Shown here one piece after another: positions 38,727-42,117 of a stretch of 64,000 nt of DNA. The notes beneath the pieces are model-generated. The model was not told the origin of the DNA. It did not search any database and saw nothing but the letters and a program-made list of their open reading frames with translations. How positions within the stretch are numbered: the first letter of the stretch is position 1; the number at the start of each line of letters is the position of its first letter. The position numbers were made by a program, and so were the translations under genes. This DNA comes from Escherichia phage vB_Eco_F26: sequence record OP870145.1, one strand, 5' to 3'.

Positions 38727-39290
38727 TTATTTATCTAGTTTAGTTATTATAGCTTCTACGGCAGCTTTTAGCTTAGATGCGGTGTTAATACGATTTTTAA
38801 TTTCAGTATACGCATCGCCAAGAACATCAAGGCTATCAGAATAAACACTTACACTATTGCGTTCGCTATTTGAAATAGAACCTTTAGTTTTACGATCAAA
38901 ATCGGTGTACACGTCTTGAAGATCACGCGCTGCCTTCTTTGCATCATCCAATGCATCAAGAGCTTTATTCAAAGCATTAACGTATTTTTTAGTGTCGAAC
39001 ATATTCTTAGAAATTTTAGCAGGTGCACGTTCAGGAGTAGCTAATACAGATTTAGGAACCTGAGCGCCAGATGCCAATTTCTTAGAAATTTTGAAAAACG
39101 CTTTATTGAATTTATTTTCTTGACTCATCGTAAAAGAACTATTATCGATGTTGTACATTTCAATAGCTTTAGCTTTCCACTTAAGAAAATCGCCGCGGTC
39201 TTTTGGGTCCAAGTGGAAAAATACTTTAGTAAGATCTGCTTCAGATGGTAATTTTGCTGCTTCGGTTAAAAATTCGGCATAGGTTTTCAT
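38727..39290 (-). CDS. Internal-protein (IP)-like capsid-injected protein
   Basis: 187 aa; N-terminus MKTYAEFLTEA matches the IP capsid-targeting consensus. Confidence 0.65.
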   Translation of the reverse strand: MKTYAEFLTEAAKLPSEADLTKVFFHLDPKDRGDFLKWKAKAIEMYNIDNSSFTMSQENKFNKAFFKISKKLASGAQVPKSVLATPERAPAKISKNMFDTKKYVNALNKALDALDDAKKAARDLQDVYTDFDRKTKGSISNSERNSVSVYSDSLDVLGDAYTEIKNRINTASKLKAAVEAIITKLDK

Positions 39291-39385
39291 TTAAAATCCT
39301 TGAAATAATTTATCGGTTGGTTATTAATTATTTATTACTTTGTTATTATCCGTAACAGCATTCTCTATGTGATTCAAACTAAAAA

Positions 39386-39405
39386 CCCCAACCTTTCGGT
39401 CGGGG
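39386..39405 (-). terminator. Rho-independent terminator (CCCCGACC-GAAA-GGTTGGGG followed by T-run on minus strand)
   Basis: 8-bp stem, GAAA tetraloop, TTTTT. Confidence 0.6.
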
Positions 39406-39414
39406 CTAAGAATG

Positions 39415-39887
39415 TTATTTGATTTGTTTAGCAGACCAAATGCGGTCTTTGATGATTTTTTGAATGTCTTCAACATACTCAAGAGAGTGAACATGTGGAT
39501 TATCTTTGAAACTATAAGCACGGGCTAACTTTTGGCCTTCGGTTTTGATTACTAAAAGCTCTTTAAGGATAGCTTCATATTTAGCGATAATTCCTTTAAC
39601 GATATTTTTTCTTGTGCAGCTTTAGGATCTGCTTTAGGAGCAGGTTTACCCGAAGCCTTTGCAAAAGCAGCACCAGTAGCAACTAAACTTTTCCAGGCCA
39701 TACTAACCGCATTTCCTGTAAATCCTTCTGCTTTCATGTCGCGAGCAAACTGGAATCGTGATTCGTCAGAAGCATCTTTATAGGAATATTTACCCGCTGC
39801 AATGGCTGCTTTTGCGACAGCTTGAATTTCGGTGCTAGATGCTTCATTTAACACCGCTTCATTTAAAAATTGAGCATATGATTTCAT
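39415..39887 (-). pseudogene. IP-like gene disrupted by a frameshift at a homopolymer (or sequencing error)
   Basis: Frame 1 (MKSYAQFLNEA..., capsid-targeting-like) stops at 39552; a +2 frame continues from the T6 run at 39605-39610 to a stop at 39415 right before the terminator; restoring one base would give a ~157-aa protein. Confidence 0.5.
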
Positions 39888-39927
39888 CTTATTTCCTGTT
39901 TTAATTCGTGGATTTAATATACTACTA

Positions 39928-39935
39928 TATTTATA
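39928..39935 (-). promoter_or_regulatory. Late promoter TATAAATA
   Basis: Exact TATAAATA on minus strand ~40 nt upstream of the IP-like gene start. Confidence 0.55.
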
Positions 39936-39943
39936 CTAAAAAG

Positions 39944-39963
39944 CCCCAACCTTTCGGTCGGGG
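39944..39963 (-). terminator. Rho-independent terminator (second copy of the CCCCGACC-GAAA-GGTTGGGG hairpin + T-run)
   Basis: Near-identical to 39386-39405; ends the tRNA/ncRNA transcription unit. Confidence 0.6.
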
Positions 39964-39970
39964 CTAAGCC

Positions 39971-40270
39971 TTGCGGCAACCTTGTCGGGGTTCCACCTGC
40001 TAAGGCAAGTGTTTGTACGAAACGCCGGGATTCGAACCCGGTTATTAAGCAGTTGACGCTACTTAATATTTTTAAAAGGCCATATCTCGACCATATCCGA
40101 ACGTTCCGTCAAAAACGCTACTCGGCTTACGGCAAAGATATTTCCTCGAATCGATAATTCGGTGCGCCGTTTCTGCTGTGATGTAAGAGGGCATCAACAA
40201 ATCATAAAGATTTATTAACACAATTCCTTACCCAGGGAACATCAGTCCGACGACTTACCGGTAGCGACCC
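39971..40270 (-). ncRNA. ORF-free structured region with tRNA-like elements (candidate small stable RNAs, analogous to T4 tRNA-cluster species RNAs)
   Basis: ~300 nt without ORF; T-arm-like CCGGGTTCGAATCCCGG with a pairing acceptor-like stem; bounded by terminator. Confidence 0.4.
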
Positions 40271-40276
40271 GGTTTC

Positions 40277-40627
40277 TTAATATTCTTTTAAAGCATCAAT
40301 CTGTTCACGACGTTTACGCCATAAATCAATTGCTTCATACGCAGATTCAGCATTTCGAATTGGACGGCATTTATATAAAGACTTGTGATTTTGATATTGC
40401 GTAGATAACGGAATTTTATCTAAAAGGTCTTTACGTTCAAAGTATTCGTAACCATCTAAGCCAAATGAACGATTTTTGAGAAATTGCCAATGACCGTATT
40501 CGTTTTCGACATAAACATAATCTGCGTGCTGATAAAGCAAATTAATTACACGTTCAGAAATAACAGTGTCATTATGATTAAAATAGAATGTTAAATCATG
40601 AACTACTAAATAAACATTACCTTTCAT
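40277..40627 (-). CDS. Hypothetical protein
   Basis: 116-aa ORF between tRNA-Arg and the ncRNA region. Confidence 0.45.
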   Translation of the reverse strand: MKGNVYLVVHDLTFYFNHNDTVISERVINLLYQHADYVYVENEYGHWQFLKNRSFGLDGYEYFERKDLLDKIPLSTQYQNHKSLYKCRPIRNAESAYEAIDLWRKRREQIDALKEY

Positions 40628-40643
40628 ATTTTCCTCACTTAAT

Positions 40644-40719
40644 TGGTCGAGACAGTAGGGATCGAACCTACGACCTAGGACTTAGAAGGTCCTTGCTCTT
40701 CCTTCTGAGCTATGCCCCG
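40644..40719 (-). tRNA. tRNA-Arg (anticodon UCU), CCA encoded
   Basis: Hand-folded cloverleaf: 7-bp acceptor stem, T-loop GGTTCGATCC, anticodon loop CTTCTAA. Confidence 0.8.
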
Positions 40720-40723
40720 TAAT

Positions 40724-40799
40724 TGGGGTGACCGATGGGAGTCGAACCCATGACTACGAGAATCACAATCTCGAGTTCTACCAACTGAACTACGGCCAC
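40724..40799 (-). tRNA. tRNA with anticodon GUG (His-like), C73 discriminator, no encoded G-1; CCA encoded
   Basis: Hand fold: acceptor GTGGCCG/CGGTCAC, anticodon stem CGAGA/TCTCG, loop TTGTGAT. Confidence 0.65.
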
Positions 40800-40913
40800 A
40801 TTAATACCTACTCCAACAATCAAGATGTCTTCACACGAAATTAAGAGAAGAGTGATCAGTTCAACCCCTATAATCGCGTCAAGTAGATATTAATGTGACA
40901 GTTGTCACAAATT

Positions 40914-40988
40914 TGGCGGACGTGATAGGATTCGAACCTATAACCAATCGCTTAACAGGCGATCGCTCTGCCATTGAGCTACACATCC
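40914..40988 (-). tRNA. tRNA-Asn (anticodon GUU), CCA encoded
   Basis: Hand fold: acceptor GGATGTG/CACGTCC, anticodon loop CTGTTAA, G73. Confidence 0.7.
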
Positions 40989-40992
40989 AAAT

Positions 40993-41079
40993 TGGTGGGG
41001 AGTGGTGGAGTCGAACCACCCGAGTCGCAATGACAATGGATTTACAGTCCACACCGCTACCTCTACGGGATAACTCCCC
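40993..41079 (-). tRNA. tRNA-Tyr (anticodon GUA), type II long variable arm, CCA encoded
   Basis: Hand fold: acceptor GGGGAGT/ACTCCCC, anticodon loop CTGTAAA, A73. Confidence 0.7.
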
Positions 41080-41088
41080 AAATTAATT

Positions 41089-41163
41089 TGGTGGCCCTGG
41101 GTGGAATTGAACCACCATCTGGCGATTATGAGTCGCTTGCTTGAACCTTCCAGCTACAGGGCC
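41089..41163 (-). tRNA. tRNA with anticodon CAU (Met, or Ile if C34 is lysidine-modified), CCA encoded
   Basis: Hand fold: acceptor GGCCCTG/CAGGGCC, anticodon loop CTCATAA. Confidence 0.65.
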
Positions 41164-41171
41164 AAATTTTC

Positions 41172-41657
41172 TTATTTTATGTAATATTTATTTAAAAACT
41201 TTCTAGCTTGAGTATGGCTAACATTTATAGCGTTTGCATAATTTTTAATAAAACCTCGTTCATCCATATTAAAATTTTCTAATATTTTTAATCGTCTAGT
41301 TATCTCATCTTGGCTTAAGGTACTTGCATTATTTTTAGAAATTTTTTCTAAGGACTGTGCCGAGTGTTTTCGACCATTAAAATTAAAATTTTTAGATTTT
41401 GGAGGAAATCTATTATTTAGTCTCGCATCTTTTGTATTTTGATTATTAGTTGCGCAATATATGTTATTTAATGAATATGGTCCTTTATCGCCGAAACGGC
41501 ACATGCAGTATTCATGACCCTTTCTTCCACGCTTATCATATTTTCCCGTTGATTTCCACCAATGCAGCCATTCATCAAAAGTTAAATTCCATTCAATGTT
41601 TCTACGTATAGCAGAATTCCGCTGAGAAATATATTTTGCATAATCTTCTTTCATCAC
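41172..41657 (-). CDS. Putative HNH-type homing-endonuclease-like protein embedded in the tRNA cluster
   Basis: 161 aa; HEYCMCRFGDKGPYSLNNIYCATNNQN His/Cys/Asn-rich core; splits the tRNA cluster. Confidence 0.4.
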   Translation of the reverse strand: MMKEDYAKYISQRNSAIRRNIEWNLTFDEWLHWWKSTGKYDKRGRKGHEYCMCRFGDKGPYSLNNIYCATNNQNTKDARLNNRFPPKSKNFNFNGRKHSAQSLEKISKNNASTLSQDEITRRLKILENFNMDERGFIKNYANAINVSHTQARKFLNKYYIK

Positions 41658-41701
41658 AAATTTCTCTACTTATTCAATACACCAAGCTAAATCAGCAAAA
41701 C

Positions 41702-41791
41702 TGGCGGAGGCGATAGGATTTGAACCTATGAGTCGCCGGAGCGACTGCCGGTTTTCAAGACCGATGCATTAAACCACTCTGCCACGCCTCC
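41702..41791 (-). tRNA. tRNA-Ser (anticodon UGA), type II, CCA encoded
   Basis: Hand fold: acceptor GGAGGCG/CGCCTCC, anticodon loop CTTGAAA, long variable arm. Confidence 0.8.
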
Positions 41792-41793
41792 AG

Positions 41794-41867
41794 TCTCCGT
41801 GGCAGGATTTGAACCTACGACATTCTGCTCCCAAAGCAGACGCTCTACCAAACTGAGCTACACGGAG
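41794..41867 (-). tRNA. tRNA-Pro (anticodon UGG), CCA not encoded
   Basis: Hand fold: acceptor CTCCGTG/CACGGAG, anticodon loop TTTGGGA; only 2 nt separate it from tRNA-Ser. Confidence 0.75.
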
Positions 41868-41877
41868 TAAATTAAAT

Positions 41878-41951
<74 letters not shown>

Positions 41952-41956
41952 AAATT

Positions 41957-42043
41957 TGGTGCGAGAAGTGGGACTCGAACCCACAAGGAAATCATTCCGC
42001 AGCATTTTAAGTGCTGTGCCTTTACCAATTTGACCATTCTCGC
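41957..42043 (-). tRNA. tRNA-Leu (anticodon UAA), type II, CCA encoded
   Basis: Hand fold: acceptor GCGAGAA/TTCTCGC, anticodon loop CTTAAAA, long variable arm. Confidence 0.8.
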
Positions 42044-42044
42044 G

Positions 42045-42117
42045 CTGGGAATAAAGGACTCGAACCTTTGCATCTAGCAGTCAAAGTGCTATGCCTTACC
42101 AACTTGGCTAATTCCCA
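42045..42117 (-). tRNA. tRNA-Gln (anticodon UUG), CCA not encoded
   Basis: Hand fold: acceptor TGGGAAT/ATTCCCA, anticodon loop CTTTGAC. Confidence 0.75.

Follow-up and report, generated by a model that had tools for sequence, protein, structure and literature searches.

The tRNA transcription unit of Escherichia phage vB_Eco_F26 ends in orthologues of rnaD and rnaC, two stable RNAs of phage T4

Identity and extent of the region

In the T4-like Escherichia phage vB_Eco_F26 about 310 nucleotides (nt) without a conserved open reading frame (ORF) lie downstream of the transfer-RNA (tRNA) genes and ahead of a transcription terminator, and the question that this locus raises is what such a stretch encodes. 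Within the 64,000 nt of sequence record OP870145.1 that we analysed (hereafter the window), the order on the minus strand is tRNA-Arg(tct) at 40719-40644, an ORF of 116 amino acids (aa) at 40627-40277, the ~310 nt in question, and the terminator hairpin at 39965-39942. An earlier inspection of the letters alone—the sequence-only reading—had considered positions 39971-40270 as candidate stable small RNAs with tRNA-like motifs downstream of tRNA-Arg, which RNAs might be either the divergent counterparts of two stable RNAs of phage T4 or a degenerate tRNA.

Alignment with T4 settled the identity. The minus-strand positions 40280-40161 are the orthologue of T4 rnaD (species 2 RNA; ~120 nt, 91.7% identity), and positions 40154-40016 on the same strand are the orthologue of T4 rnaC (species 1 RNA), with 136 identical positions over the 139 nt of the T4 annotation; in the T4 record NC_000866 these RNAs are entered at 71053-71171 and 70908-71046, respectively, each as a misc_RNA described as "small, stable RNA." Because the alignment to T4 extends over both misc_RNAs as well as the trailer and the terminator, at 95% identity for the whole unit and 94.9% for the trailer plus terminator, the region is the orthologous rnaD–rnaC pair, and the succession rnaD, rnaC, trailer, terminator is common to both phages. 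The pair thus occupies the 3' end of a phage tRNA transcription unit, before a conserved trailer and an intrinsic terminator. The earlier suspicion that the two T4 RNAs had counterparts here was therefore correct, base for base and in the same order, but those counterparts cannot be called divergent, being near-identical (97.8% for rnaC and 91.7% for rnaD). To our best combined explanation, which would join this identity to a tRNA-like fold of rnaC, a contact between two of its loops, processing by the tRNA machinery, a decoy function, and an independent rnaD module, we assign a probability of roughly 0.55.

The limits of the feature required some adjustment. The feature lies on the minus strand and reaches to about 40280, so that an end at 40270 cuts the 5' hairpin of rnaD; the terminator expected at the other end is real, though its position at 39965-39942 (minus strand) is just outside 39971. 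Nor is the region directly downstream of tRNA-Arg: in T4 that tRNA gene abuts rnaD, whereas in the window and in phage T2 an ORF—here the 116-aa one at 40627-40277—is located between them, which is a difference of layout and no evidence against homology to T4 rnaD. The first bases of the rnaD orthologue (40161..40280, minus strand), which are conserved, overlap the TAA stop codon of that ORF. The A/U-rich spacer GAAUUA (40155..40160, minus strand), which presumably resembles a cleavage site of ribonuclease (RNase) E in view of the motif RAUUW, separates rnaD from the rnaC orthologue (40016..40154, minus strand); the latter was delimited by homology to T4 and by our covariance model R1, which found a single copy in the window, at 40155-40012 with 163 bits. 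A covariance-model search of Rfam had been suggested as a check, but at the gathering thresholds and at E values up to 10 no Rfam family appeared for either RNA, and the check accordingly gives no answer.

An 801-base query across the region had matches in 769 phage records, mostly of T-even phages of Escherichia and Shigella, and the region was matched in 810 phage records. The records of RB7 and ATK47 annotate rnaC and/or rnaD at the matching position. In many other GenBank entries rnaC is mislabeled, either as a hypothetical protein or as an unusual tRNA: those of the Klebsiella phages EI (locus L014, 496-633) and Marfa (L035, 314-451) carry over the rnaC homologue a 45-aa "hypothetical protein" with a ribosome-binding site, and those of the Enterobacter phages id4496 (L003, 754-848) and KKP_3262 (L017, 476-571) present it as a tRNA-Met or tRNA-Phe of 95-96 nt.

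That the region might encode small proteins, as several of these annotations would have it, we regard as barely credible. As the sequence-only reading had maintained, no ORF of at least 60 aa overlaps positions 39971-40270, the longest ones being of 49 aa (40072-40221, minus strand) and 34 aa (40053-40157, plus strand), and these two ORFs, along with the 45-aa annotations in EI and Marfa, constitute what can be said in favor of a coding role. Against that role, the frame, position, and length of the ORFs differ between close relatives, the differences in length among the homologues are not multiples of three, and the substitutions track base pairing and not codon position. We rejected the coding reading of the 49-aa and 34-aa ORFs, which keep neither frame nor position in the relatives.

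The fold of rnaC

As a sequence feature the pair is ordinary, namely the expected copy of two RNAs known from T4 since the 1970s, or for some 50 years; what the T4 stable RNAs do, however, is among the longest-standing questions in T4 biology, which question the comparison makes testable. What is new here is structural: a predicted, covariation-backed fold of rnaC. The sequence diversity was taken from sensitive searches of GenBank phage records, and the rnaC set consisted of 28 distinct sequences from at least nine named T4-like phage genera together with unplaced phage and metagenome sequences. An unguided RNAalifold run on nine rnaC sequences of a more divergent subtype produced a four-way junction in which 15 of the 42 pairs were compensatory, and the single-sequence minimum-free-energy fold of the window rnaC was the same four-way junction (-50.1 kcal/mol, z = -4.45; none of 200 shuffles equally stable). 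In the 28-sequence alignment 92.7% of the cells were paired, compared to 34-46% when the partners were slid by 1-3 columns, and 17 pairs had changes on both sides, which values none of 500 shuffles reached. By covariation, rnaC is thus shown to have a tRNA-shaped four-way junction without an anticodon arm, which predicted shape would be unable to decode. The window copy differs from that of T4 by three substitutions, two of them in the hairpin P4 and both maintaining the pairing.

In the first helix, P1, the two ends of the RNA are joined into an acceptor-like stem of seven positions (CGAUUCG, 40153-40147, with CGUUUCG, 40024-40018, minus strand), comprising five Watson–Crick pairs and a central tandem U.U, the latter present as U.U/U.U in 28/28 sequences. 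Four of the pairs are invariant and the third covaries (18 G-C versus 10 A-U) with zero mismatches. For the 7-base-pair (bp) acceptor-like stem noticed in the sequence-only reading, the 3' strand CGUUUCG has two possible 7-nt partners, and the supported one is that 5'-terminal CGAUUCG, so that the stem closes the 139-nt RNA and not an internal segment of ~95 nt. The internal partner probably intended, CGGAACG (40108-40102), was discarded: that pairing has no compensatory change, is mismatched at the third pair in 16 of the 28 sequences, and, as CGGAACG/CGUUUCG, also conflicts with the loop–loop contact described below.

Right after P1, in the position of the tRNA D arm, begins a long arm of ~70 nt (40146-40077, minus strand), which starts with the short stem AGG/CCU and continues through AUAUCUU/GAGAUAU, GCCGUA/UAUGGU, CCGA/UCGG, a bulge, and AGCGUUU/GAACGUU up to the loop UUGACG (40112-40107). 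RNAalifold on the nine sequences of the other subtype recovered this architecture, no helix of the arm being without compensatory changes, and in the apical stem all five of five pairs had changes on both sides. Beside AGG/CCU, which occupies the D-stem position, an unpaired GG at 40081-40080 is conserved. The arm exists in two unrelated sequences, "type A," to which T4 belongs, and "type B," found for example in PEi20 and EnC15, which nevertheless have the same total length and the same loops and co-circulate within Karam-, Kanagawa-, and Moonvirus; we count this constancy of length and loops across unrelated sequences in favor of our explanation, as selection on shape. K-turn and sarcin–ricin motifs, looked for by eye in the long arm, led nowhere.

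An A/U-rich single-stranded linker leads from the long arm to the hairpin P4 (40043..40068, minus strand), which has 10 bp, of which nine show changes on both sides, and the loop CGUCAA (40058-40053). P4 is located just 5' of the T arm CCGGG-UUCGAAU-CCCGG (40025..40041, minus strand), which canonical element had been recognized from the letters alone and runs directly into the 3' strand of P1, the arrangement found in tRNA. The middle pair of the T stem covaries among U-A, G-C, and A-U, and the T-loop variants UUCGAAU, UUCAAAU, UUCGAGU, UUCAAGU, and UUCGAGC keep U54 U55 C56 R57 A58. The molecule ends in the tail UACAA (40013..40017, minus strand), which recalls a discriminator base followed by a CCA in which one base differs; UACAA is found in most homologues, and UCCAA, with an encoded CCA, in the Marfavirus-type sequences.

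The loops UUGACG of the long arm and CGUCAA of P4 are exact reverse complements, and the complementarity holds at 6/6 positions in 28/28 sequences. In four Marfavirus-type sequences the loops read UUGGCG/CGCCAA, a coordinated change from A-U to G-C, which support is suggestive and not statistical because the double change is one evolutionary event. With this complementarity in hand, we propose that the loops kiss, which contact would fasten the molecule's lower part into a compact body of two helices: a 7-bp apical stem, a 6-bp kiss, and the 10-bp P4 could stack to ~23 bp, and that stack would lie beside the ~20-bp lower part of the long arm. Such a body would explain why the unrelated types of long arm have the same length and loops. 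The comparison leads to specific predictions—the end-to-end acceptor-like stem with its tandem U.U, the loop–loop contact, and a possible elbow contact—and defines the rnaC family beyond T4, over at least nine T4-like genera.

When rnaC is set against the tRNA family (RF00005, class II), the resemblance lies in the acceptor-like stem contiguous with a 5-bp T stem, the U-U-C-R-A loop, the four-way junction, the location in a tRNA cluster at tRNA-like spacing, and the tail that recalls a discriminator plus CCA. The T arm stands, as in a tRNA, on a 7-position acceptor stem, though that stem holds two U.U. The anticodon arm with a 7-nt loop, in contrast, is absent, the fold having a 10-bp hairpin whose 6-nt loop is complementary to another loop, and no other candidate arm; a helix of ~62 nt replaces the D loop; and the acceptor stem carries the tandem U.U. 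ARAGORN called neither a tRNA nor a transfer-messenger RNA (tmRNA) in 39971-40280, and the best match within the Rfam tRNA clan was tRNA-Sec with 17.3 bits versus a gathering score of 47; this and the other weak Rfam matches (isrK and anti-hemB among them) were dismissed as far below the cut-offs. The rnaC covariance model, conversely, weakly matches true tRNAs elsewhere, with 13-19 bits.

Bacterial Y-like RNAs (YrlA), the tRNA-like domain of tmRNA, and the tRNA-like structures of plant viruses are non-decoding copies of the acceptor, T arm, and elbow, as rnaC would be. No Rfam match to YrlA, tmRNA, or other curated tRNA mimics was obtained at E values up to 10 in 39850-40700, and rnaC differs from those mimics in that the acceptor-like stem itself is built from its two ends, that it has no evident Ro-binding stem, and that a loop–loop contact would lock its lower body.

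The same T arm and acceptor-like stem could be viewed as the remnant of a tRNA, in which case rnaC would be a decaying pseudogene and rnaD a spacer, both passively carried; ARAGORN indeed calls the homologue in id4496 a 95-nt tRNA, the KKP_3262 record annotates its own as a 96-nt tRNA-Phe, and whole clades are without one RNA or the other. Decay, however, is at odds with 17 compensatory pairs and a constant total length, with a tandem U.U and complementary loops that are invariant in 28 sequences from at least nine genera, and with a window copy identical to the one in a Hafnia phage. We consider that explanation very improbable and already disfavored; the "degenerate tRNA" of the sequence-only reading was not borne out, the non-tRNA parts of rnaC being conserved and covarying across at least nine genera.

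In a single lineage, represented by Enterobacter phage IME523 (L016) and the metagenome contig meta29 (L029), the T loop reads UGCAUGC and the conserved GG is CG. Only there is the GG so altered, and there U55 has also become G; a contact of the G18–U55 type may thus have become a C-G pair, which anecdote fits a retained elbow. The variant may represent either such a compensating tertiary pair or a decaying copy.

rnaD, cassette behavior, and possible roles

We found rnaD in 15 loci, which belong to Tequatro-, Mosig-, Gapriver-, and Dhakavirus. The consensus structure of these sequences was 96.9% paired with compensatory changes at six pairs, and the window rnaD by itself folded modestly better than its shuffles (z = -1.75). 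Both RNAalifold and the single-sequence fold gave a 5' hairpin, ACCGG-GUCGCUA-CCGGU (40257..40273, minus strand), whose closing pair varies among A-U, G-U, and G-C. A central arm follows (40183..40233, minus strand), whose base stem GGGUAAGG/CCUCUUAC (RUAAG/CUUAY) is structurally conserved and covaries from G-C to A-U in six sequences versus six and whose tip (40192-40222) has been swapped among lineages, with three unrelated types: that of T4 and the window, that of T2, and that of Dhaka- and Gaprivervirus. This arm would be enclosed by a predicted long-range stem, GUCGUCG (40254-40248) with CGGCG-C-AC (40169-40162) on the minus strand. The terminal ACCA of T4 rnaD reads ACCG in the window and ACCG or ACAG in the relatives, so that there is no conserved CCA end. 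Complementarity between rnaD and rnaC, which we sought by eye, amounted to just 6 bp (GAAACG with CGUUUC) and was dropped.

rnaD is a separate structured RNA and an independent module, in which the 5' hairpin is combined with a long stem whose tip can be exchanged. The first ~45 and the last ~25 nt are nearly invariant over the 15 loci and four genera; the window shares those 5' and 3' blocks with T4, while most of its differences from T4 are found at the tip of the central arm. The near-invariance of the 45-nt 5' block suggests that a specific sequence is recognized.

Since that block is conserved over four genera beyond what its helices need, one or both RNAs might be trans-acting regulators that pair with phage or host mRNAs, rnaD being the more plausible of the two. 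In addition, a 2025 evolution study found one and the same single-nucleotide change in rnaD in every one of three lines in which a T4-like phage had been adapted to a semi-permissive strain of E. coli (PMC12685909), which threefold selection in host adaptation would suit such a regulator. Yet most of the conserved bases of rnaC are engaged in covarying helices or in the loop–loop contact, we identified no target, the processed RNAs would carry no terminator hairpin and U tail of their own, and a 2010 review of post-transcriptional control in T4 stated that no trans-acting regulatory RNA had been functionally characterized in T4 (PMC3014915). On balance, regulation by base pairing appears to us quite unlikely.

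The distribution of rnaC is wide: Tequatrovirus, Mosigvirus, Gaprivervirus, Moonvirus, Karamvirus, Kanagawavirus, Gelderlandvirus, and Marfavirus, plus unplaced phages of Citrobacter, Enterobacter, and Erwinia and metagenome contigs. Scans of contig collections for rnaC returned eight loci in the viral_contigs set, and three true matches plus two chance matches in GC-rich contigs in the metagenome_contigs set; in the genome_contigs set no cellular homologue was found, the one match there being an archaeal chance match of 14.7 bits. The rnaC of Moon-, Karam-, and Gelderlandvirus is flanked by tRNA-Trp and tRNA-Gly, from which spacers of ~4-8 nt separate it, and it has no adjoining rnaD. Dhakavirus and one Mosigvirus (ESCO47), conversely, keep rnaD, the trailer, and the terminator but precisely lack rnaC, with a junction that reads ...GCACCGAA|CACUUGCC... 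Since either RNA can be present alone, the two are independent cassettes, which the phages gain and lose.

This distribution also bears on whether the RNAs act in cis, as a structured 3' end that would protect the upstream tRNA precursors from 3' exonucleases or guide their ordered processing, the discrete RNAs being by-products. In Tequatrovirus and Mosigvirus the pair does close the unit at its extreme 3' end, with a structured trailer and the terminator behind it, and both RNAs are released by processing, neither having an obvious promoter. Where rnaC is internal between two tRNA genes, however, as in Moon-, Karam-, and Gelderlandvirus, it cannot serve as a 3' cap; Dhakavirus retains trailer and terminator and yet drops rnaC; and a role in cis would leave the loop complementarity, the tandem U.U, and the tRNA-type T loop without explanation. 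We thus hold a cis function to be improbable.

Our preferred explanation instead starts from excision. The enzymes of host tRNA maturation would release rnaC from its polycistronic precursor, with RNase P acting on the minihelix of acceptor stem and T arm, RNase E cleaving within the A/U spacer, and 3' exonucleases trimming what is left at the end. We propose such processing from position and shape, since the minihelix is the part that RNase P recognizes and the genomic spacing matches that of tRNA genes, and it would explain the accumulation of rnaC as a discrete stable RNA. In T4 the species 1 precursor is processed by RNase P, RNase E, and RNase III.

Once released, rnaC would display only the "top half" of a tRNA—the acceptor end, the T arm, and the elbow—and would serve in trans as a decoy, or as a ligand competing for a factor of host or phage that recognizes that half, such as a nuclease or toxin aimed at tRNA 3' ends or a tRNA-processing enzyme. 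That rnaC is a non-decoding mimic occupying a factor of this kind we offer as a tentative possibility, below even odds. A bolder version would make rnaC a purpose-built top-half mimic with a kissing-loop bundle, serving as a late decoy or inhibitor of a host factor (e.g., a tRNA-targeting defense toxin), and rnaD a second, host-specific counter-measure; although such a counter-measure would explain the repeated selection of one base change in rnaD, we judge the whole of this version rather unlikely. For T4, a 2022 omics study classed both RNAs as late and reported a northern blot with an RNAC probe, which confirmed RNAC (PMC9697503). If rnaC were in fact a decoy for factors that bind tRNA ends, a classic orphan RNA would be tied to tRNA-targeting antiphage defense.

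Several points weigh against this explanation. With its tandem U.U the acceptor-like stem is a weaker one, and most of the phages have ACA in the tail in place of CCA, so that recognition by RNase P and the CCA-adding enzyme is not assured; moreover, the annotated 5' end of T4 rnaC lies one base upstream of the first P1 pair and is therefore no textbook product of RNase P. The IME523/meta29 lineage has a T loop that is not of the tRNA type, and the loop contact draws on perfect conservation together with the single event in four related sequences. T4 stays viable on laboratory hosts when deletions take out its tRNA region, so that any function of rnaC or rnaD would be conditional. For rnaD, the predicted closing stem is invariant in 14 sequences, and covariation is neutral on that stem because it never varies. 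Finally, the literature calls the roles of RNAC and RNAD unknown (PMC3014915, PMC9697503, PMC12685909).

Terminator, neighboring genes, and a further structured element

Downstream of rnaC, the 3' trailer (39966..40011, minus strand) contains three small predicted hairpins, the first being CACUUGC-CUUA-GCAGGUG, and is kept in phages without rnaC. The intrinsic terminator, AGCCCCGACC-GAAA-GGUUGGGGCU plus a U tract (39937..39965, minus strand), was located by a terminator scan and is identical in T4; the hairpin proper (39965-39942) has a 10-bp stem with seven G-C pairs, a GAAA loop, and a T run. Directly upstream of rnaD we found no convincing promoter, neither a sigma-70-like one nor a TATAAATA site.

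The terminator hairpin AGCCCCGACCGAAAGGTTGGGG is present twice on the minus strand, at 39384-39407 and 39942-39965, and each copy is followed by an ORF of phrog_2280, of 187 aa (38727-39290) and 111 aa (39552-39887), respectively. The second copy is also followed by TATAAATA at 39935-39928, and the 111-aa ORF spans only the first half of the family profile. The doubled terminator–promoter–gene module looks like a tandem duplication.

On the upstream side, the 116-aa ORF (40277-40627, minus strand) belongs to phrog_3355, a PHROG of unknown function, and contains no Pfam domain; T4 has nothing at that position, and the T2 ORF there is annotated as similar to RB69ORF150c. The ORFs near the region matched only function-unknown PHROGs and no Pfam domain, and thus provide no functional clue.

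The tRNA cluster comprises ten genes at 40644-42117 (minus strand)—Gln, Leu, Gly, Pro, Ser, Met, Tyr, Asn, His, and Arg, with neither Thr nor Ile—which set differs from that of T4; the sequence of tRNA-Arg(tct) is unrelated to that of its T4 namesake, and tRNA-Tyr barely exceeds the Rfam threshold (30.3 bits versus 29). A 161-aa ORF (41172-41657, minus strand) of phrog_16521, a family of unknown function without a Pfam match, splits the cluster between tRNA-Ser and tRNA-Met; the split in the T4 cluster carries the homing endonuclease segB.

Finally, an unannotated structured element occupies positions 40803-40891 (minus strand) in the 114-nt gap from tRNA-Asn (40914-40988) to tRNA-His (40724-40799). 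Its predicted fold (-32.7 kcal/mol, z = -4.36) has a closing stem of 11 bp around two hairpins, and in just four sequences the pairing of these helices is maintained at seven pairs in which both bases have changed. T4 is without the part of the cluster that holds the element, which matches 355 phage records, including T4-like phages of Klebsiella, Enterobacter, Erwinia, and Salmonella at 77-87% identity, and which may be a third conserved RNA of the T-even tRNA clusters.

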